Of a DNA stretch of 30,075 nucleotides, positions 2,913 through 19,407 are shown in pieces. The translations under genes and the position numbers were made by a program. Origin of the DNA: a virus (Duplodnaviria > Heunggongvirae > Uroviricota > Caudoviricetes); IMG/VR virus record IMGVR_UViG_2563366969_000005. One strand, written 5' to 3'. The notes below the pieces were generated by a model, which was given only the letters and a program-made list of their open reading frames with translations, was not told the DNA's origin and searched no databases. Numbering within the stretch: the stretch's first letter is position 1; each line of letters begins with the position of its first letter.

Positions 2913-3422
2913 ATGTTTGATTTTCAGGTTTCCAAACATCCCCACTATGACGAAGCATGCCGCATTTTCGCACAGCGTCACAATATGGCGAAGCTGGCCG
3001 AGCGTGCAGGTATGAACGTTCAAACGTTACGTAACAAGCTCAACCCGGAACAGCCTCACCAGTTCACGCCGTCTGAATTGTGGCTGCTGACTGACCTGAC
3101 CGAAGACTCAACCCTCATTGATGGTTTTTTAGCGCAGATTCACTGCCTACCATGCGTGCCGGTTAATGAGTTGGCTAAAGACAAATTGCAGTCTTATGTC
3201 ATGCGCGCAATGCGTGAACTCGGCGAACTGGCGAGCGGCGCGGTATCTGATGAACGTCTGACCATTGCCCGTAAGCACAACATGATTGAAAGCGTTAACT
3301 CCGGCATTCGCATGTTGTCATTGTCGGCTCTGGCTCTGCATGCACGTCTGCAGACTAATCCAGCTATGTCGAGCGTGGTCGATACCATGAGCGGTATTGG
3401 CGCATCGTTTGGTCTGATTTGA
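2913..3422 (+). CDS. cII: Phage regulatory protein CII (186 CII / CP76 family)
   Basis: Translation MFDFQVSKHPHYDEACRIFAQRHNMAKLAERAGMNVQTLRNKLNPEQ... matches my recollection of coliphage 186 CII. Start ATG 2913 has AGAGGG 9 nt upstream. The ORF track's longer 2883 start is a TTG with a second ATG at 2889, judged less likely. Confidence 0.85.
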   Translation: MFDFQVSKHPHYDEACRIFAQRHNMAKLAERAGMNVQTLRNKLNPEQPHQFTPSELWLLTDLTEDSTLIDGFLAQIHCLPCVPVNELAKDKLQSYVMRAMRELGELASGAVSDERLTIARKHNMIESVNSGIRMLSLSALALHARLQTNPAMSSVVDTMSGIGASFGLI

Positions 3423-3429
3423 GGTGCGT

Positions 3430-3630
3430 ATGCTGAAAAGTGAACCGTCATTCGCATCTCTGCTCGTTAAGCAAAGCCCCGGCATGCACTACGGCCACGG
3501 CTGGATCGCAGGTAAGGACGGCAAGCGCTGGCACCCGAGCCACTCGCAGGCTGATTTACTGGCTGGCCTCTCTACTCAAAAGCGGGGGGGATCATGGCTA
3601 TCGAAGCTGTTTCCGCGACTGTTCCGCTAA
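3430..3630 (+). CDS. Small early protein, hypothetical (position of 186 fil-like genes)
   Basis: ATG 3430 with GAGG 5 nt upstream, immediately after the CII stop. 66 aa, basic. No recognisable motif. Confidence 0.45.
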   Translation: MLKSEPSFASLLVKQSPGMHYGHGWIAGKDGKRWHPSHSQADLLAGLSTQKRGGSWLSKLFPRLFR

Positions 3631-3932
3631 AAGCGGGTGAACGTCTGGCCGGTCTCAATCATGTTGCCGAATTGCGCGCGAGATATTGGGGCGATAGCTG
3701 GAAAGAGGTTGAACGTTTTGTCGATGATATGCGCGATAAACGTGACCCACAATTTGAAGAAAATAATCGGGCGCTGGCCGCTATTTTCTTTCTGGCAAAA
3801 ATACCGGCGGCTCGTCATGAACTCGAATTAAGTGAGCTGACTACTGACGAGAAAAAGGCGCTTATTACAGCGATGAATCATTTTCGTGCAGTAGTGAGCT
3901 TATTTCCCAAACGGCTAACCATGCCGAATTAA
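3594..3932 (+). CDS. Hypothetical early protein
   Basis: 112-aa ORF. A G-run (GGGGGGG) lies 3 nt upstream of the ATG. Overlaps the previous small gene in another frame, giving operon-like packing. Confidence 0.55.
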   Translation: MAIEAVSATVPLKAGERLAGLNHVAELRARYWGDSWKEVERFVDDMRDKRDPQFEENNRALAAIFFLAKIPAARHELELSELTTDEKKALITAMNHFRAVVSLFPKRLTMPN

Positions 3933-4449: not shown

Positions 4450-6672
4450 TTGGCTGTTCAATTCGCTTATCCGTGGAACGTCCCACGGTCGGCAATCTCC
4501 AGCCCATACCTTACTTATGAGCAACAGCAAAGCCGCGACCGTATGTTCGCGGCTTTGCTGCATGCAAAAAAGGTGCTTTCTCTCCAGCCCGACTGCGTGC
4601 GGTTAGATGTTTATCGCACTGCTGCGGTGCTGGAACAAAATCAGGGTAGTCAACGAGCCAATGCATTTTTAATCAGCTTCTGCAAAAAGGCATTGCCGCG
4701 TCTTGAACTGGTCGCAAAAAAATACGAATGCGCTGGTATCAACAGCAAGGTATCAACCGCTGTTTTTGGAAGTCATTTTGATACTCAGCAAATGCAATAT
4801 CTGTCGTCACGCATGGTTAATATGGTCGCCCGATATAACCGTCTCCCGGACATGTCGCGCGCTGATGTTGACCTGTTGGCCGCTGATATTGCTAATTTCA
4901 TTCGTGGTGAACTTGCCAACATTAATGACCACGGATTCGGCGAGCTTAAAACGCTGTACACCTGGTATATTCGTGCTGGCTTTATTTCCCTCCAATTCAA
5001 CGTTATCCCACCACATTGGGAGCGGGTTGAAAAAAAATATGTCGGTGCGGATGAAATCGCACCGGCTATCGCCAAAATGTTTAACGATGGGTGGTGGCGC
5101 GGTCTTTTGCGCCGTGTAGCAGCTACGTGGCGCGAACACCTGCAAATTGCAGTCGGCAACGTCAGTAAGAAAAAAAACACTTACGCGAGTAAAAACTGCG
5201 TGACTGACTGGCGTGAACAAAAGCGCCGCACTCGTGAATTTCTCAAAGGTCTGGATCTCGAAGACGAAGACGGCAACCGTATCAGCCTAATTGAAAAATA
5301 TGATGGCTCAGTTGCTAACCCTGCGATTCGCCGCTGTGAGCTCATGACCCGCATTCGTGGGTTTGAAAACATCTGTAATGAGCTCGGTTATGTCGGTGAG
5401 TTTTACACTCTAACCGCGCCGTCAAAATATCACGCCACGACTAAAGCCGGTTACCGTAACAGCAAATGGAGCGGTGCCAGCCCGGCTGACACGCAAAACT
5501 ATCTAACCGGTATCTGGGCGCGTATCCGTGCCAAACTACATCGGGAAGATGTCCGTATTTTCGGTATTCGTGTCGCCGAGCCCCATCACGACGGCACTCC
5601 ACACTGGCACATGCTGATGTTCATGCTGCCGGAAGATGTTGAATATGTTCGCTCCATCGTCCGTAAATACGCATGGAAAGAAGACCGCCACGAACTGAAA
5701 AGCGATAAATCCCAAAAAGCACGTTTCCACGCGGAGTCCATTGACCCGGAGAAAGGCAGCGCAACCGGCTATGTTGCTAAATACATTTCAAAAAATATCG
5801 ACGGTTATGCTCTCGATGGTGAAACCGATGATGAAAGCGGTGAGCTGCTGAAAGAGACAGCCCCCGCCGTTTCAGCATGGGCTGCGCGCTGGCACATCCG
5901 TCAGTTTCAGTTTATTGGTGGTGCGCCGGTGACGGTTTACCGTGAGTTGCGTCGCCTCGCTGATACCGAAACCGCGCACGGTCTGAGCGTTGAGTTTGCC
6001 GCCGTCCATGATGCCGCCGACGCTGGTGACTGGGCTGGTTATGTTAATGCTCAGGGTGGGCCGTTTGTCCGTCGCGATGATTTACAGGTGCGCACACTGT
6101 ATGAACCGCGTACCGAGCTTAATCAGTACGGTGAGGAAACGGTATGTATTAAGGGGGTCTACGATTCCTCCATAGGTGCAGGAAGCCCGATTTTAACCCG
6201 GCTCACTCAGTGGAAGATTGTTCCGAAGCGTGCTGTTGATTTGGCCGTTGACCTTCAGGACGGCAAAGCCGTCCCTCGGAGTTCTGTCAATAACTGTACG
6301 GGAAGCGAAAGCGATCCACCGATACTGGATTTAACAAAACCACTGAGTCGGCGTGAAAGACGAGAATTGACCAACCGACTCAGGAAGCAAAAGCCAGCAG
6401 TACGGCGAAAATTCATCCACGGAACGGATGAGCAAAACGCAGCTATAGCTAAAACTATCGATGAGATACATCTGACAACCGGCATTAATATCAGCCGGGG
6501 CGAAGCCCTGCACCTGATGGCCGGTGGTAAAAGTTGTTTTGATGGTAAATGGCTACGCGGAACGGCCAAAGGAGAAATATTTTCCGCAGCACCATCGCAT
6601 GAGGCTAAAGCTCGGAAAATCCTTAATCGTGTTGCGGCGATGGCTGAAGCATCAAAACCAATACATGAGTAA
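4450..6672 (+). CDS. A: Replication initiation endonuclease gpA (rolling-circle Rep, P2 A-like)
   Basis: 740-aa ORF with an HUH-type motif (PHWHMLMF) and a downstream catalytic tyrosine context (GYVAKYISKN). The start is a TTG at 4450 after a G-run; an in-frame ATG at 4543 is an alternative. Confidence 0.9.
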   Translation: MAVQFAYPWNVPRSAISSPYLTYEQQQSRDRMFAALLHAKKVLSLQPDCVRLDVYRTAAVLEQNQGSQRANAFLISFCKKALPRLELVAKKYECAGINSKVSTAVFGSHFDTQQMQYLSSRMVNMVARYNRLPDMSRADVDLLAADIANFIRGELANINDHGFGELKTLYTWYIRAGFISLQFNVIPPHWERVEKKYVGADEIAPAIAKMFNDGWWRGLLRRVAATWREHLQIAVGNVSKKKNTYASKNCVTDWREQKRRTREFLKGLDLEDEDGNRISLIEKYDGSVANPAIRRCELMTRIRGFENICNELGYVGEFYTLTAPSKYHATTKAGYRNSKWSGASPADTQNYLTGIWARIRAKLHREDVRIFGIRVAEPHHDGTPHWHMLMFMLPEDVEYVRSIVRKYAWKEDRHELKSDKSQKARFHAESIDPEKGSATGYVAKYISKNIDGYALDGETDDESGELLKETAPAVSAWAARWHIRQFQFIGGAPVTVYRELRRLADTETAHGLSVEFAAVHDAADAGDWAGYVNAQGGPFVRRDDLQVRTLYEPRTELNQYGEETVCIKGVYDSSIGAGSPILTRLTQWKIVPKRAVDLAVDLQDGKAVPRSSVNNCTGSESDPPILDLTKPLSRRERRELTNRLRKQKPAVRRKFIHGTDEQNAAIAKTIDEIHLTTGINISRGEALHLMAGGKSCFDGKWLRGTAKGEIFSAAPSHEAKARKILNRVAAMAEASKPIHE

Positions 6673-7743: not shown

Positions 7744-7938
7744 ATGCAAAATCCCCTTTCATCGAAAAATGACCCGTTTGCCGATTGGGCAAAGAATCTG
7801 ACTTTAATGGCTTTAAATAACGATCTGAGCTCTCGCGAGGTGGAAAGCTACACCGCAAAAATGGTCGAGCAGGCCGGTAAAGATGAGCTATCAGTCGTTA
7901 TCAAACACCTGTTAAATCACATCAGAATGCGCAAATAA
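7744..7938 (+). CDS. Hypothetical small protein in the SOS operon
   Basis: ATG 7744 with GAGG 9 nt upstream. The ORF-track version starts at a TTG (7654) inside repeat copy 2 and is judged too long. Confidence 0.45.
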   Translation: MQNPLSSKNDPFADWAKNLTLMALNNDLSSREVESYTAKMVEQAGKDELSVVIKHLLNHIRMRK

Positions 7939-7954
7939 GAGGAACTATATAAAT

Positions 7955-8056
7955 ATGTTATCTCTCGTTTATGAAAATCCGTGGACGACGATTTTTCTGA
8001 TGATTGTCGCCAGCATGTGCCTCAACAGTGTTATTGGCGCATTGCGCGGCCATTAA
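7955..8056 (+). CDS. Possible 33-aa hydrophobic peptide (MLSLVYENPWTTIFLMIVASMCLNSVIGALRGH)
   Basis: Short ORF below the ORF-track cutoff, translated by hand. AAGAGG lies about 12 nt upstream. It ends about 20 bp before a strong intrinsic terminator and has one predicted TM-like segment. Could be fortuitous. Confidence 0.25.
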   Translation: MLSLVYENPWTTIFLMIVASMCLNSVIGALRGH

Positions 8057-8076
8057 TCGCGACAAAACCAGACTAA

Positions 8077-8105
8077 AACCGGCACCCTGAATGCCGGTTT
8101 TTTTA
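8077..8105 (+). terminator. Rho-independent terminator ending the early/SOS transcription unit
   Basis: Stem aaccggca (8077-8084) / tgccggtt (8092-8099) with loop ccctgaa, followed by a run of T (through about 8104). Confidence 0.7.
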
Positions 8106-8264
8106 TGCCATTTTTCCGCGAACTTCCCGTTTTTTAGTCGTGCATGCATCAGGTGCATGGTTTTGCATGCGTCAGTCTTGCCCGTTCTGTCCGTGCGCCG
8201 CCAGAGCTAGCGCGGATCCAGAGTTGTCATGCAACTGCATTAAAACCGACCCATAAAGCGGGCA

Positions 8265-8283
8265 GGCGTGGCGGGGAAAGCAT
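8265..8283 (+). other. cos: cos site (19-nt cohesive-end sequence, 186-type)
   Basis: GGCGTGGCGGGGAAAGCAT. As I recall it this is the 186 cohesive end; P2 is GGCGAGGCGGGGAAAGCAC. It lies between the replication/SOS region and the portal gene, as expected in an integrated P2-family genome. Confidence 0.65.
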
Positions 8284-8502
8284 TGCGCGCCAGCAGTGAT
8301 GCGTAATAATAAAAATTATCCTCTGAGCGCGTCGTGATGGCGCTGTCGTGGTCGCTGCTGGTTCGTTGGTGGTCGGGTGTGTTCGTGCGCGTGAGACGCA
8401 TCTGATGCGTGATGGTGGTGTGCATGGAAAAGCCACCAGGAGCAGCGGCTTTACAGGAGTGGCAGGATTCAAACTGCTAATTATGTTTCTACTATGATTA
8501 AA

Positions 8503-9507
8503 CTAATTTACATGTATGTAGAGTTCACCGTCGCCAGACCAATCGGGACACTCTAAAACAAGCCCAAACTGCTTGAATATTTCATCAATGATTATTGTTA
8601 TCTCCCGAAAATCACCAAAACCTGTAATGTGCTGGTCATTAAACTTCCCATAAAGATTCTGAAAAGCAATGCCTAATTCTGATAATTGATATCTTATATT
8701 TGAGTTGGATAGTGTAAGGGATAGCTTTGGATCGTATTCTTTAATATTGATGTTTAGAGAATGGACATAACCCATCGCATAAGCATAAGAGTTGATGATT
8801 AGCCTGATACGTTTTTTTACTTCGAGATACATGTCATTCAGAGAAATATTACCGTACTTATAACCCCAGATGAGTTTTTCAATCTCGTCAGATACTTCAT
8901 TTACAACAGTGTCAAGATTCTCTAAAAATAAATCGATAGTTTCTTGAGGGGCAGACCCCGAAGACATGTAATTAGCGAGATATTCAGACCATGCACGCGT
9001 GGCTGAGATAAGAAGCGCGCTACCATACTCGTTGACTGTAAAGTTTTGGGCTAAGCATGTTAGTAAGTTTTTTTCATGTACGTGCACTAATTCATGGTGA
9101 ATGCGATGGATGACTGCGAGGTATCCTTCTTCTTTCAGTTTTAAGAAGCTACCATCATTGAAAAGCTCAACAAAAAAATCAATCGATAGCACAAGGGTAT
9201 ATTCTTCACATAGCCCATCATTGCCAATTTTTGTTACTAACTGCCCGACGGCTGCGCCCTGTTTGCTATTGGTAAATGAACTAGGGGATTTGTGTTGGTA
9301 AGAGGATGTTACCTTTTGAAGAGCTTCACTGAAGTTATAGGAAACAATCACGCATTTTAATTTGGAGATATCAAGATTGAGATTTTTTGTTAAAGCTCGG
9401 ATAGCTTCTAGTGTGAAATTACCGATATTATTTGCTTCTTGCTCAGTAGCGAAACCTTCGAGGGTTATTTTAAAATCAGTTTCCAAAATATTAATCTCCG
9501 CGCCCAT
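8503..9507 (-). CDS. AT-rich cargo protein of unknown function with His-rich HExxH motif; candidate anti-phage defence or exclusion gene
   Basis: 334-aa ORF, conspicuously AT-rich against a GC-rich backbone. Contains IHRIHHELVHVHEKN (HELVH is an HExxH pattern in a His cluster). Lies between cos and the portal gene, downstream of Q on the same strand. Weak Shine-Dalgarno. No family recognised. Confidence 0.8.
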   Translation of the reverse strand: MGAEINILETDFKITLEGFATEQEANNIGNFTLEAIRALTKNLNLDISKLKCVIVSYNFSEALQKVTSSYQHKSPSSFTNSKQGAAVGQLVTKIGNDGLCEEYTLVLSIDFFVELFNDGSFLKLKEEGYLAVIHRIHHELVHVHEKNLLTCLAQNFTVNEYGSALLISATRAWSEYLANYMSSGSAPQETIDLFLENLDTVVNEVSDEIEKLIWGYKYGNISLNDMYLEVKKRIRLIINSYAYAMGYVHSLNINIKEYDPKLSLTLSNSNIRYQLSELGIAFQNLYGKFNDQHITGFGDFREITIIIDEIFKQFGLVLECPDWSGDGELYIHVN

Positions 9508-9525
9508 TGTTTTGATATTCGATGC

Positions 9526-9554
9526 ACTATAGCTTTCGCAGATTGCATCTTCAA
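9526..9554 (-). promoter_or_regulatory. Putative sigma70 promoter for the cargo gene at 8503-9507
   Basis: On the minus strand: TTGAAG (-35, plus coordinates 9549-9554), a 17-nt spacer, then TATAGT (-10, plus coordinates 9526-9531), about 20 nt upstream of the ATG at 9507. Lies in the 77-bp gap after the Q stop. Confidence 0.45.
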
Positions 9555-9584
9555 TAATGAGCGCAGAGATTGTGGCGGCCTAAG

Positions 9585-10631
9585 TTATTCTGGGTTGTCG
9601 AGGGTGTACTCTTTGAATCTGATGACCTCCATGCCGAGCCAGTCATTTACCTCCCTGAACCTGTCCTGTAGCGGCGACAGCTCGTTGCGCACAAATACCT
9701 TTGCCACCTTCTCAACATCACCGAGTGAACCGATATTCTCGGGCTTGCCGCCCATGAGCTGGAACGGTACGCGGTGCGCGTCCATCAGATCGGCGGCACT
9801 GGCCTTCTTGATGTTGAAAAAGTCATCCTTTGTGGCGACCTCGCTCAGTGGCACGATTTTGATGCCGTCCGGTTTTCCGCCGGGAGCGTAGAAAAACAGG
9901 TTCTTAAAGTTGCCGAGCCCTTTTGAGTTGCGCATCGCCTCGCGCAGCGATTCGACGTCGGTCGCGCTCTGCGCCGGGTCAGTCACATACATGATGTAAC
10001 CCGCGTGCGCGCCGTTCTGATAATACTTGCGGCGGAACAGCGTCGCGGATTCATTCAGCCAGGCGGAATTTAGCGCGCTGAGATATTCGGGCAGGCCGTA
10101 AATCTCCTGATTAATGTCGGGCTCCAGCAGGTGAAACACGGTATCAGGCGCGAACTCGTGCGGCTGGGTGAAGTTTTCCACAAACCAGAAAATCGAATCG
10201 TCGACTCCGCGTCGGGTGTATTTGGCTGGCGAGGCCAGCAGTTTGATTAACTGGCCGGTGACGCTGTGGCGCTGCTCAAGAAAGGCGTTACCGAACACCA
10301 GATAATCGAGCGCAAAGCGGCTGAAATCCTGACGGGATAACAACGGGTGCGGAATGTAGGTGCTCGCGAGCACGTTACGCTTAACATAAATTGGCGAGCT
10401 GTGATGCACGGCAGAGCGCAGGCTCTTTGCCAGCCCTGAGAAGCTGACCGGCGGCTCGTACCATTTGCCGTTACTGATGCACTCGACGTAATCCAGAATG
10501 TCGCGCTTATCGAGTACCGGCACCGGCTCGCCGAAGGTGAACGCTGTCGTTTTTGGCGGTGTGCTGGCGGTCAGTTGTTGTGGTTTGCTGGCCTTTTGTG
10601 CGTTGGCTTTACGGGATTTTTGTTTACCCAT
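9585..10631 (-). CDS. Q: Portal protein (P2 gpQ-like)
   Basis: 348-aa ORF immediately downstream of the large terminase on the same strand, with the size and position of P2 Q. Assigned by synteny and length. Confidence 0.88.
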   Translation of the reverse strand: MGKQKSRKANAQKASKPQQLTASTPPKTTAFTFGEPVPVLDKRDILDYVECISNGKWYEPPVSFSGLAKSLRSAVHHSSPIYVKRNVLASTYIPHPLLSRQDFSRFALDYLVFGNAFLEQRHSVTGQLIKLLASPAKYTRRGVDDSIFWFVENFTQPHEFAPDTVFHLLEPDINQEIYGLPEYLSALNSAWLNESATLFRRKYYQNGAHAGYIMYVTDPAQSATDVESLREAMRNSKGLGNFKNLFFYAPGGKPDGIKIVPLSEVATKDDFFNIKKASAADLMDAHRVPFQLMGGKPENIGSLGDVEKVAKVFVRNELSPLQDRFREVNDWLGMEVIRFKEYTLDNPE

Positions 10632-10632
10632 T

Positions 10633-12402
10633 TTAGTTGAACTCCAGAATAGATTTAGGCTGCATGCCGCTACCGGCAGAAAGCGGTTCGTTTAACAGGG
10701 CGTGCATGGTCGCCCATGCGATATCGGCGTGGCTGGCTTCCTCGGTGCGGCTGGCCTCATAGGTGGCGCTGCGCCCGCTGCTGGTCATGGTTTTGCGGAT
10801 GGACATAAACGACTGCGTGACGTCGGTTGCTCCGGCGTCGTACTCCAGACAGCCACGGCGAATGGTGTCTTTCGCCTTGAGTACCATTGCGGTTTTCATT
10901 TCAGGTGTGTAACGGATGCCGCGTGCCGCCGGGTAAAATGAGCGCACCAGCTGGAACACGCCGAGACCGAGGCCGGTTGCGTCAATGCCGATGTATTCGA
11001 CGTTGTATTTCTCGGTCAGCTTGCGGATGCCCTCTGCCTGTGCTGCAAAATCCATGCCCTTCCACTGGTGGCGCTCCAGCATGCGGAACTTGCCACCAGA
11101 GACCACCGGCGGCGCGAGCACGACGCACCCGGCACTGTCGCCGGTGTGTGACGGGTCGTAGCCAATCCAGACAGGACGAGAGCCGAACGGATGGTCGGCG
11201 AACGGGGCAAAGTCCTCCCATTCCTCCATCACATCGACCATGCAGCGCTGCAGCTCCTCGAACGGGAATACCGACGCTTTATCGTCGACAAACTCGCACA
11301 TAAACAGGTTCTTAAAGTCCTCATCACTGTTTTCGCGTTTGAGCTGGTCGAGGTCGAACAGGGTGCAGCCACCCGCAAGGGCGTCCTCAATGGTGACAAT
11401 CTGCCGCCACTGGCCATCGTCGCAGAGCTGGCCACCGGCGAGCGCGCTGTGACTGATGTCGATTTCGATGCGGTCGGCAATCCGGCTGCGCCCCTTGTTG
11501 AACAGCTCGCCAGACCAGAAGGGGTAAGCGCCGTGCGCCAGCGTGGAAGGTGTCGAAAAATAGGTCGAGCGCAGGTGCTTTTGCGAGGCCATGCCCGAGG
11601 CGACTTTGCGCAGTTTCTGAAAATTCGGGATCCAGAATATTTCATCGACATACAGATCGCCGTTATGGCTCTGCGCGGTGTTGGAATTGGTACCGAGAAA
11701 AATCAGTTTTGCGCCGTTGTTACCGATGACAATCGGGTCGCCAGTCAGGTCAACGTCGACCAGTCGCGCAAACTGGATGATGTATTCGCGGAACACGTAA
11801 GCCTGCGTTTTACTGGCTGATAAAAATATCTGGTTATGGCCGGTTTTGAGTGCGCGCAGCAGTGCCTCGCGGGAGAAATAGAATGTCGCGCCAATCTGGC
11901 GGGATTTGAGAATGTCACGAATACGGTGCTCCAGTCCTGCGCGGTACCACTGCAACTGGTACTCGAAAGACTGGTCGAAAAATAATTCCTCTAGTTTATC
12001 GATAGCCTCGTCGCTGAAAAAATTCTTTTTCGGCTTTTTGCGCTCCCCTTTGTTGCGGTTGGCGACGTTGGGGTTAAGGTCGGCTTCGTTGCCGGTCTGG
12101 CTGTAGCGGTTGACTCGCGCCAACCGTTCAATCTGCCGTCCGAGTAGGTCAATCTCTTTGAAATCACCCCCTGTCTTTTGCGGCTTGGCGATGAGCTGAA
12201 TCAGCCTAGCCTCAAGGCTGCTTTCAACGCGGGAAATCGGCGCGATGCCGTCCCAGCCGTCGCGCTGCTTCCAGCTCTGCACGGTCGGGCGCTTGACCTG
12301 CAGCATTTCGGCAATCTGTGGCACGGAAAAACCCTGCCAGTAAAGCAGCGATGCCTGCCGTCGCGGGTCATGCAACAAGGTTGTATCGGTGGAATTGGTC
12401 AT
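10633..12402 (-). CDS. P: Terminase large (ATPase) subunit (P2 gpP-like)
   Basis: 589-aa ORF transcribed divergently from O-N-M-L, forming the P-Q operon as in P2. Confidence 0.9.
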   Translation of the reverse strand: MTNSTDTTLLHDPRRQASLLYWQGFSVPQIAEMLQVKRPTVQSWKQRDGWDGIAPISRVESSLEARLIQLIAKPQKTGGDFKEIDLLGRQIERLARVNRYSQTGNEADLNPNVANRNKGERKKPKKNFFSDEAIDKLEELFFDQSFEYQLQWYRAGLEHRIRDILKSRQIGATFYFSREALLRALKTGHNQIFLSASKTQAYVFREYIIQFARLVDVDLTGDPIVIGNNGAKLIFLGTNSNTAQSHNGDLYVDEIFWIPNFQKLRKVASGMASQKHLRSTYFSTPSTLAHGAYPFWSGELFNKGRSRIADRIEIDISHSALAGGQLCDDGQWRQIVTIEDALAGGCTLFDLDQLKRENSDEDFKNLFMCEFVDDKASVFPFEELQRCMVDVMEEWEDFAPFADHPFGSRPVWIGYDPSHTGDSAGCVVLAPPVVSGGKFRMLERHQWKGMDFAAQAEGIRKLTEKYNVEYIGIDATGLGLGVFQLVRSFYPAARGIRYTPEMKTAMVLKAKDTIRRGCLEYDAGATDVTQSFMSIRKTMTSSGRSATYEASRTEEASHADIAWATMHALLNEPLSAGSGMQPKSILEFN

Positions 12403-14570: not shown

Positions 14571-15320
14571 ATGACGAGCCCCGCACAGCGTCACATGATG
14601 CGGGTCTCGGCCTCTCAAGCCGCGCAGCGGGAACAAGCCCCGCTGCGCCATGCAACCGCCTACGAGCAGATGCTGGTAAAGCTGGCCGATGACCGCCGCA
14701 CGTTGAAAACCATCCGTTCAAACGAACTGAAAGCCGCGAAAAAGCGTGAGCTGCTGCCGTTCTATGCGCCGTGGGTCGCCGGTGTGCTGGCTGATGGCCG
14801 TGGTGCGCAGGATGACATTCTGATGACAGTCATGCTGTGGCGTCTCGATGCCGGTGATATCGCTGGCGCGCTGGAAATTGCGCCATACGCGCTGAAGCAC
14901 GGCCTCACCTCTGACTATCGCCGCACGACACCTTACATGCTGGTTGAGGAGGTGGCGCTTGCCGCGCTGCGCCTGCGCGATGCCGGTGAGCCTGTCGACC
15001 TCGCATTACTGCTGACCCCCCTTAGCCTGACCGACGGCGCTGACGTTCCCGATATGGTGCGCGCTCGACTGCATAAGGTGACCGGTCTAACCCTGCGCGA
15101 TGCCGGTCAGAGCGCCGAAGCACTGGCACAGTTTCAGCGCGCGATGCAGCTCGACCGCAATGCCGGTGTGCGCAAAGAGATTGAGCGACTGGAGCGGGCA
15201 TTGAAGCCTAAGCCCGATGCCGCGCCCCGTAAAACGACTAAACCGCGCACGCGCAAACCTGCCACCAAACCGGCGGCAAAGCGCGGGCGTCCACCAAAGG
15301 CGGTAAAAACCGCCGGTTAA
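14571..15320 (+). CDS. M: Terminase small (endonuclease) subunit (P2 gpM-like)
   Basis: ATG at 14571 (MTSPAQRHMMRVSASQ...) with GGAAAGCGGAGAG upstream. The ORF-track 14475 start overlaps the N gene end and is rejected. Pro/Lys/Arg-rich C-terminus typical of gpM. Confidence 0.9.
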   Translation: MTSPAQRHMMRVSASQAAQREQAPLRHATAYEQMLVKLADDRRTLKTIRSNELKAAKKRELLPFYAPWVAGVLADGRGAQDDILMTVMLWRLDAGDIAGALEIAPYALKHGLTSDYRRTTPYMLVEEVALAALRLRDAGEPVDLALLLTPLSLTDGADVPDMVRARLHKVTGLTLRDAGQSAEALAQFQRAMQLDRNAGVRKEIERLERALKPKPDAAPRKTTKPRTRKPATKPAAKRGRPPKAVKTAG

Positions 15321-18380: not shown

Positions 18381-18442
18381 TAGAGGTGGACTGGTGTCTA
18401 GGTGGGCGTGCCCACTGAGTTGGGTTCGATTCCCTAACCTCG
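18381..18442 (+). other. tRNA-like fragment (T-arm/T-loop GGTTCGATTCC with partial acceptor 3' strand); not an intact tRNA
   Basis: GGTTCGATTCC (18423-18433) is the canonical T-loop consensus, flanked by an imperfect T-stem (TTGGG/CCCTA) and preceded by a short hairpin (GTGGG-CGTG-CCCAC). There is not enough sequence for D and anticodon arms. It overlaps the stop codon of the minus-strand cargo gene. Confidence 0.35.
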
Positions 18443-19270
18443 TATTATTCCTCTCGATATTTTTATTGCTGGGTTTTCCTTTCTTATTTCATTTTTAATT
18501 TGCTCATCACAAATTAAATAATCTATGTTTTTTGCTTTAACAAGTTCTTTAACGCTAATGTTAATTGAATTTAATAGATTTGCATTCCGCATGTTAGCCC
18601 CTTCATAAGTAACGGATTTAAAATCACATCCTTTTAATATGCAGCTTTTCATTTCGCCATCTGTAAAATACCCCCCTTCAAAACTGCAGTTTTCGAAAGT
18701 GACATTTTGAAAACATGTATTAAATGCCTTAATATTTCTTAGCTTGCAGTTTTTGAATTTAACACTCTTAACTCTATTGCCTGTAATATTTAGAGCTTGA
18801 ATTGTGCAATTATCGAAAGAACAATCTCTAATGTATGATTCGCTCATATTCAAGCCGGTTAAGTCAGCGTCTTTAAAATGTAAATATTTGATAGTGGACA
18901 TTTTATCAAGTTCAATCCTTGGAACTTGAATGTTATATATTCCTTTAGCATTTAACTGACGTATGATTTTTATCTTCATAATATTCAGTTCTGCAGAAGA
19001 ATGCTTTGCCAGATTTTCAAGATCTTCAATTAGTTCGTGAATAGCATCTTTATTTTGCCTTTTATTTTCAAAATAGTAAAGAATCACACCCAAAACAAGA
19101 AAGTCTAAAATTGAAGAATTTGCATTAACAAGAAAATTCTCCATGAATTTTGAGTTGTAGTTATCATTATAAACAGACAACCCTACTATAAGCCCGGAGT
19201 ATAAAAAAAAGATACCTATAATATATTTCATATTGCTTATTGTACGCCTAAAAGATGAAGTTCTTTTCAT
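18434..19270 (-). CDS. AT-rich membrane-anchored pentapeptide-repeat protein (cargo gene between S and V)
   Basis: Start chosen at MKRTSSF... (ATG at 19270, GGCAGGTAG upstream); the ORF-track start is 19315. Two hydrophobic helices (YIIGIFFLYSGLIVGLSVY, ILDFLVLGVILYYF) are followed by repeats of the pentapeptide type (ADLTGLNMSES, CSFDNCTIQALNITGNRVKSVKFKNCKLRNIKAFNTCFQNVTFENCSFEG...). Very AT-rich compared with its neighbours. Confidence 0.8.
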   Translation of the reverse strand: MKRTSSFRRTISNMKYIIGIFFLYSGLIVGLSVYNDNYNSKFMENFLVNANSSILDFLVLGVILYYFENKRQNKDAIHELIEDLENLAKHSSAELNIMKIKIIRQLNAKGIYNIQVPRIELDKMSTIKYLHFKDADLTGLNMSESYIRDCSFDNCTIQALNITGNRVKSVKFKNCKLRNIKAFNTCFQNVTFENCSFEGGYFTDGEMKSCILKGCDFKSVTYEGANMRNANLLNSINISVKELVKAKNIDYLICDEQIKNEIRKENPAIKISRGIIRG

Positions 19271-19407
19271 TACTACCTGCCATATGTTTTGTGTGATTTT
19301 CGAATGAGTCAACACTCAAATGATACATGAATGCACACCGAATTGTGTAGAAGAGCATACAGCTGAATCGTTTTGCTCTTGGCTTTAACAATCGGCATTC
19401 TTTTTTC

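Follow-up and report, generated by a model that had tools for sequence, protein, structure and literature searches.

The window, the whole 30,075-nucleotide stretch of viral DNA that was analyzed, represents nearly an entire 186-like prophage and, over the stretch tested, shows 100% identity to the E. coli FDAARGOS_1253 chromosome. The minus strand encodes an integrase (117-1157) that is 51% identical to 186 Int and a CI-type repressor of 286 amino acids (1527-2387) with two CI-type HTH stretches and 32% identity to 186 CI; immunity and attachment site therefore differ from those of 186. The cII gene precedes the gene for replication protein A (gpA; 4450-6672), and after A lie a Tum/DinI SOS module that is split like that of PSP3, then three small ORFs and a t95b-like terminator; PADLOC and Pfam searches of the small gpA-side ORFs yielded nothing usable. 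On the other side of cos are the portal gene (9585-10631, minus strand; Pfam Phage_portal), a homologue of P2 Q and its 186 counterpart whose product is 94% identical to the 186 portal, and the gene for the large terminase (10633-12402, minus strand; Pfam Terminase_6N, Terminase_6C, and Terminase_5), a P2 P homologue that is 98.6% identical to 186 Orf12 and is expected to be the cos cutter. The small terminase subunit, homologous to P2 M and 186 R, is encoded at 14571-15320 on the plus strand and is 91.6% identical to the 186 R protein, which its record annotates as "terminase subunit; P2 M homolog". The rightward late genes follow, through D, where the window ends. With the exception of the tail-fiber host-range genes (K and the downstream ORF), all of the 186 late proteins are represented at full length with 80 to 99% amino acid identity, so that the prophage appears to be intact, and 186 specificity is expected of its terminase. 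The divergence of the repressor and integrase is not matched in the late genes, which are nearly identical to those of 186.

The cos site lies between gpA and the 3' end of the portal gene. The 19-nucleotide sequence GGCGTGGCGGGGAAAGCAT occupies 8265-8283 on the plus strand and occurs once in the 30-kb window, even when three mismatches are allowed (chance expectation, 0.01). It matches bases 1 to 19 of phage 186 (U32222) at 19 of 19 positions, a stretch that the record annotates as the cos cohesive end, where the 5' end marks the top-strand cut and the 3' end the bottom-strand cut, and the first 19 bases of the Salmonella phage PSP3 are the same 19-mer, described in its record as "identical to 186 cos". 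The first-pass annotation had proposed a 186-type cohesive end here, with the proviso that a difference between the 19-mer and validated cos sequences of the family would speak against it; the comparison bore the placement out exactly and revealed no mismatch with 186 or PSP3. The cohesive end of P2 and P4, GGCGAGGCGGGGAAAGCAC, is identical at 17 of 19 positions, the two differences of the window 19-mer being the substitutions T5A and T19C. When the segment 8000-8620 was compared with phage records by BLAST, the last base of the linear records of 186, EtG, and SEN1 aligned with position 8264 and the first base of the PSP3 record aligned with position 8265. These record ends and the synteny with 186 agree that the internal cos orients the genome with its left end toward the portal gene (Q), as the first-pass annotation had proposed. 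On the grounds of identity to 186 and PSP3 cos, uniqueness in the window, and the ends of deposited records, 8265-8283 is predicted to form a 19-nucleotide 5' overhang and the first bases of the mature left end, and since the prophage is syntenic with 186 and its late genes are intact, the virion left end should be position 8265. With cos located, the coordinates of the packaged genome are set, which aids annotation; the prophage is organized exactly like 186.

Intrinsic terminators flank cos on both sides. On the plus strand at 8075-8106, a hairpin followed by a T-run ends the gpA-side accessory (SOS/tum-type) operon and aligns with 186 positions 30436-30463, annotated as t95b. On the minus strand at 8422-8452, downstream of the cargo gene, the terminator-like hairpin GCTGCTCCTGGTGGC followed by TTTTCC ends the terminase-portal late operon and aligns with tW of 186 (164-187) and tQ of P2 (160-181). 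Between cos and this second terminator lies a noncoding block (8300-8426) that is GT rich on the top strand and CA rich on the late-transcript strand. The alignment with P2 and 186 that had been suggested as a check was carried out against the recircularized cos junctions of 186, PSP3, and P2: homology with 186 and PSP3 is unbroken from about 8075 to about 8452, both terminators included, and homology with all three phages breaks at about 8453 and returns at the portal gene. The intervening DNA (8453-9572, minus strand) is an inserted cassette of low GC content (0.34 to 0.41, versus about 0.55 for the phage backbone) running from the portal stop to the terminator. In 186, PSP3, and P2, the portal stop codon is only 5 to 10 nucleotides from tW/tQ, and in 186 and PSP3 it is 8 to 10 nucleotides from tW and approximately 176 nucleotides from cos, whereas in the window, 1.1 kb of cassette separates portal stop and terminator. 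At the portal-side junction, just past the portal stop, the heptamer GCCGCCA (9573-9579, minus strand) corresponds to the left arm of the tW stem in 186 (186: ...AAGCCGCCAGCATGGCGGCTTTTT) and represents a remnant of a tW-type stem; in addition, the two hits in this locus of a profile of the uninterrupted cos-portal interval overlap at profile positions 216-229, inside the terminator. The insertion junction therefore lies in or at the terminator hairpin. A weak promoter-like sequence, TTGAAG-17-TATAGT (9526-9554, minus strand), is found between the portal stop and the cargo start; a promoter consensus scan of the region returned 5 sites versus 4.1 expected, and this site is not above chance.

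The cassette carries an ORF of 334 amino acids (8503-9507, minus strand), here called the cargo gene, in the same orientation as the terminase-portal operon. Its stop codon (8503) is 219 nucleotides from the end of the cohesive sequence (8283), so that the claim of a cargo gene at the extreme left of the packaged DNA, about 220 bp from cos, is accurate; it is the first gene inside the left end. The accompanying remark that an insertion this close to cos must preserve packaging signals needs qualification: the cassette lies outside every conserved element, tW/tQ included, and it is not especially close, as other prophages carry cargo just 10 to 35 nucleotides from the cohesive end. The gene has no counterpart in 186, PSP3, or P2, and the arrangement was found in 26 of 5,426 complete E. 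coli genomes and, at the same position, in phage vB_EcoM-613R3. In an IMG/VR contig (L090:8125-9129), the same gene at the same position is 91% identical and split into ORFs of 113 and 154 amino acids; this copy is apparently a pseudogene, and the cargo is therefore not always maintained.

The cargo protein is uncharacterized: it had no Pfam match and no PADLOC match at an E value of ≤0.1, it belongs to phrog_11743, a family of unknown function, and all 78 database clusters are named "hypothetical". Among 25 homologues, down to 41% identity, the motifs H137-H138-E139-x-x-H142-x-H-E145 and W173-S174-E175-Y176 are invariant, and residues H138, E139, H142, and E175 conform to the HExxH…E pattern of gluzincins. 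An AlphaFold2 model (pLDDT, 89.6; pTM, 0.89) gave M1 (IRAP) and M61 aminopeptidases as best Foldseek matches, which were weak (E values of 0.012 to 0.05; TM scores of about 0.35), and a search of PDB sequences with the family profile returned chance matches only. Distant members of the family stand alone in variable islands of Shewanella, Psychromonas, Kosakonia, and Serratia, where their neighbors include toxin-antitoxin, nuclease, resolvase, HEPN, and type VI secretion genes. A role in phage defense or another conflict system is plausible as a prediction. A bolder proposal, which we consider unlikely, is that the protein is a new single-gene antiphage or counterdefense effector of divergent gluzincin type, expressed from its own promoter in the lysogen, and that the two insertion slots described below are mechanistically distinct. 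If this were true, the slot between portal and terminator would receive cargo that runs in the direction of the late operon and shares its terminator. The slot next to cos would receive convergent cargo that replaces the GT-rich block and would constitute a second point of entry into the P2 hotspot.

We surveyed 160 loci around portal homologues, 80 from species-representative genomes and 80 from IMG/VR contigs; in 158 of them, the cos core, in the expected orientation, lay downstream of the portal gene. The distance from portal stop to cos was 149 to 230 nucleotides (median, about 170) in 109 loci and longer, up to 4.8 kb, in the other 49 (34 of 79 genomes and 15 of 79 viral contigs); portal-side cargo is thus common. 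Breakpoints were located by mapping an nhmmer profile of the uninterrupted cos-portal interval onto the 49 long-gap loci. A simple hairpin-plus-T-run finder for tQ, applied to the 158 loci, missed 47 of the 109 uninterrupted ones and was dropped. There are two points of cargo entry. In class I (19 loci, the window included), homology runs from cos through the block to or past the terminator, and the cargo lies beyond the late-operon terminator; in class II (30 loci), homology ends 10 to 35 nucleotides beyond the cohesive end, and the adjoining DNA is of background composition. Orientation, counted in the 39 loci with a portal-stop-to-cos gap of more than 600 nucleotides, differs between the classes: class I cargo runs in the direction of the portal gene in 8 loci and against it in 5, and for class II cargo the corresponding counts are 2 and 23, with 1 further locus of mixed orientation (Fisher P of about 9e-4, a rough value as the loci are not independent). 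The portal-side slot of other loci holds Lamassu, Olokun, NsnA, PD-T4-2, and type II restriction-modification genes. The closest phage record, ON470592 (L006), shares the portal-side cargo of the window but carries, on the gpA side of cos, a gene (942 bp, 2947-3888, minus strand, opposite strand) that differs from what the window has there (7744-8140), and its homology with the window begins at 8140, just outside the conserved island described below; the two sides of cos therefore swap cargo independently. Three surveyed loci (L046, L055, and L063) are enterobacterial-type P2-like prophages in assemblies labeled Vagococcus sp., Bacillota MAG, and Chryseobacterium sp.; their portals are 75 to 78% identical and their cos sites are of P2 or 186 type, and contamination or misbinning most likely accounts for the host labels.

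Conservation around cos is concentrated in few places. A four-way alignment of P2, P4, 186, and the window defines a common core of 57 bp (8236-8292, plus strand) that matches the 55-bp core of P2 and P4 published by Ziermann and Calendar in 1990, as quoted in PMC5694545, PMC9594776, and PMC9122126. In a cos-centered alignment of 154 distinct sequences, conservation peaks at 8235-8294, with a majority fraction of 0.82 to 0.96, and is strong nowhere else; weaker islands occupy 8135-8174 and 8325-8344. Within the first of these, the sequence GTGCATGGTTTTGCAT (8153-8168, plus strand), of the form GTGCAT-N4-TTGCAT, lies on the gpA side 112 nucleotides from the cut and is a candidate terminase-recognition element. 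This island forms a local peak of 0.79 against about 0.42 in its flanks, is kept at the same distance in the window, 186, P2, and P4, and was found in 120 of 157 loci with one mismatch allowed, at 111 to 113 nucleotides from the cut in 107 and at 121 to 123 nucleotides in 13, with no intermediate values. The spacer between island and core is variable, contiguous homology mostly ending 30 to 39 nucleotides from the cut. Because fixed, helically phased spacing across a variable spacer is typical of protein-binding sites, we infer from conservation and spacing that the island is an accessory recognition element; the shift from 112 to 122 nucleotides equals one helical turn and points to a protein contact specific to one helical face. 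The second island corresponds to a secondary patch on the portal side, TCTGAGCGCGTCGTGATGGCGCT (8322-8344, plus strand), that is conserved in 186, PSP3, and P2, has a majority fraction of 0.6 to 0.73, and was not found in P4 in the four-way alignment or in most class II loci. A search of 7900-9700 against Rfam at a permissive threshold returned only a chance-level match to Thr_leader (E value, 0.62) and no known RNA family.

Satellite phage P4 lacks structural genes and is packaged by the helper terminase (PMC9122126), and in the four-way alignment it shares only the 57-bp core and the island with P2, 186, and the window. Sequence-specific packaging thus most likely relies on the core together with the gpA-side island, these being the only elements that the satellite also retains. 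For builders of P2/P4 cosmids and for those who analyze hotspots, core and island (at 112 or 122 nucleotides) are the parts that never move; the practical point is that the portal-side GT-rich block has often given way to other DNA.

That block is compositionally unusual. The G+T content of 8314-8433 is 0.68 against a window background of 0.49 ± 0.06, within the top 0.2% of 120-nucleotide windows, and the GC skew is +0.20 to +0.28; on the minus strand, the 127 nucleotides of the block comprise 0.37 C, 0.31 A, 0.18 G, and 0.14 T. The first-pass annotation was thus right to describe the flanks as GT skewed. Its description of them as GC rich is valid relative to the cargo (0.34 to 0.41) but not relative to the backbone, the flanks having a GC content of 0.51 to 0.58. 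The composition of the block is conserved (G+T of 0.67 ± 0.04 in the 109 uninterrupted loci), and its sequence is poorly conserved (majority fraction, 0.42 to 0.55). Three ORFs span cos, at 8144-8299 on the plus strand and at 8227-8472 and 8240-8425 on the minus strand. They had been thought noncoding in spite of their length, and this view is upheld: no gene is annotated where they lie in the curated records of 186, P2, and PSP3, and their frames are disrupted by single-base indels relative to 186. RefSeq (WP_024195493.1) and ON470592 annotate the ORF at 8240-8425 as a 61-amino-acid "hypothetical protein" that straddles the cut site; we rejected it as a gene on account of that position, its absence from the curated records, and its broken frame, and the annotation is probably an artefact of the CA-rich strand.

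We consider it highly probable that the locus as a whole is a 186-like cos (Peduoviridae, Eganvirus type) at 8236-8292, with its cohesive end at 8265-8283, a packaging signal formed by core and island, and cargo inserted before the late-operon terminator. Packaging in P2-type phages starts from monomeric circles. Once the prophage has been induced and excised, its own terminase (10633-12402 together with 14571-15320) would introduce staggered nicks, before 8265 in the top strand and after 8283 in the bottom strand, giving a linear genome with 19-nucleotide 5' overhangs. The left end would lead from 8265 through the GT-rich block, the late-operon terminator, and the 334-amino-acid cargo to the portal gene, and the right end would be formed by the gpA-side accessory region, with 8264 as its last base. 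The cargo cassette entered between the portal stop codon and the tW/tQ terminator; it thus has the orientation of the terminase-portal operon, shares its terminator, and touches no conserved element of cos. The comparisons themselves establish the identity to the annotated 186 cos, the position and orientation of the site, the pattern of conservation, the insertion breakpoints, and the integrity of the prophage genes; we infer that the prophage is inducible and is cut at 8265/8283, and likewise which of the conserved elements would be bound by terminase.

The readings that compete with this one concern the status of the prophage and the function of the GT-rich block. Many P2-like prophages in E. 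coli are cryptic, and the late activator gene B/ogr and attR lie outside the window, which stops at D, so that cos could be a relic in a defective prophage and define no virion ends. We regard this as very unlikely: the late genes from terminase to D are full length at the identities to 186 given above, the tail-fiber host-range genes excepted; the prophage has an integrase, a CI-type repressor, cII, A, and the Tum/DinI SOS module; its cos is intact in the core and on both flanks; and a near-identical element has been deposited as phage vB_EcoM-613R3. The first-pass annotation saw in the GT-skewed flank a probable terminase-binding region, and the block could accordingly be the terminase-binding part of cos, comparable to cosB of lambda, beyond which insertions must stay. 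In 128 of 158 loci, the strand asymmetry of its composition persists (G+T of 0.63 to 0.67), and the block sits on the left end. In electron microscopy of P2 and 186, the left end reportedly enters the capsid first, and the cosB side of lambda does likewise. Longer cos flanks also raised the transduction of P2 cosmids (PMC9594776). Against these points, P4, although packaged by the same terminase, has nothing in common with the block past 8292; in 30 of 158 loci, those of class II, the sequence beside cos is ordinary (G+T, 0.50; GC, 0.38); and the sequence of the block is poorly conserved. The title of the 1996 paper of Dodd and Egan, moreover, indicates that retrons replace exactly this DNA. 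The assignment of terminase binding to the block consequently does not stand up well, and we judge it improbable; the block is probably not an essential packaging signal, P4 being the one case of proven packaging in its absence.

The block might instead act as RNA, in the manner of a rut site, providing a Rho-dependent backup terminator behind tW/tQ that shields cos from late transcription. The late-transcript strand is rich in C and poor in G over 127 nucleotides (0.37 and 0.18), composition is conserved where sequence is not, and in uninterrupted and class I loci the block is always directly downstream of the intrinsic terminator; where it is missing, in class II, the cargo is mostly convergent (23 of 26 loci). 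This reading draws on composition, however, and the block may be no more than tolerated spacer DNA with a mutational bias; we think a Rho-dependent function unlikely. Our preferred account, in which core and island form the signal, leaves the picture of P2-type packaging unchanged.

The site agrees with cos of 186 and PSP3 (Eganvirus) in its 19-mer, in the homology from t95b to tW, and in its placement and orientation relative to portal and terminase genes. P4 differs in having neither a GT-rich block nor a portal gene beside cos. The cos of lambda (cosQ-cosN-cosB) is likewise a staggered-nick site with flanking recognition elements that is internal to the prophage, but its overhang is 12 nucleotides rather than 19, the sequences are dissimilar, and the conserved accessory element of the window, unlike that of lambda, is on the side of the future right end. 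The retrons Ec67 and Ec86 of 186-related prophages are also foreign genes on the portal side of a 186-type cos, and to judge from the title of Dodd and Egan's 1996 paper (cited in PMC5694545 and PMC6868368), they replace the DNA between cos and terminator. They would then follow the class II pattern; the window belongs to class I, with cos-terminator DNA intact and the cargo past the terminator.

The identification made here is that of a known feature, correctly recognized in a new prophage. Knowledge of the 186 cohesive end dates back to the 1970s (Wang, Martin, and Calendar 1973, cited in PMC9594776) and that of the insertion slot to the 1990s, the interval from cosL to Q having been proposed as a pick-up site for foreign genes in P2-like phages (Dodd and Egan 1996 and Nakayama 1999, as quoted in PMC5694545). 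The gpA-gpQ interval beside cos is a well-studied defense hotspot of P2-like phages (Rousset and coworkers 2022, PMC9122126; NAR 2026, PMC13586616); the window cargo lies inside it and matches no PADLOC model. These two studies appear to handle the interval as one locus, undivided by side of cos or by terminator. The two insertion subslots with their orientation bias, the island at 112 or 122 nucleotides, and the evidence that the GT-rich block is dispensable are minor additions that refine this picture, and parts of them may already be in the literature.

A second cargo gene is present elsewhere in the prophage. It encodes a pentapeptide-repeat protein of 293 amino acids (18434-19315, minus strand; PF13599, E value of 3.7e-16) and sits between the tail-completion gene (186 O/P2 S homologue) and the baseplate V homologue, where the gap in 186 is only about 70 bp; in P2, this slot holds orf30.
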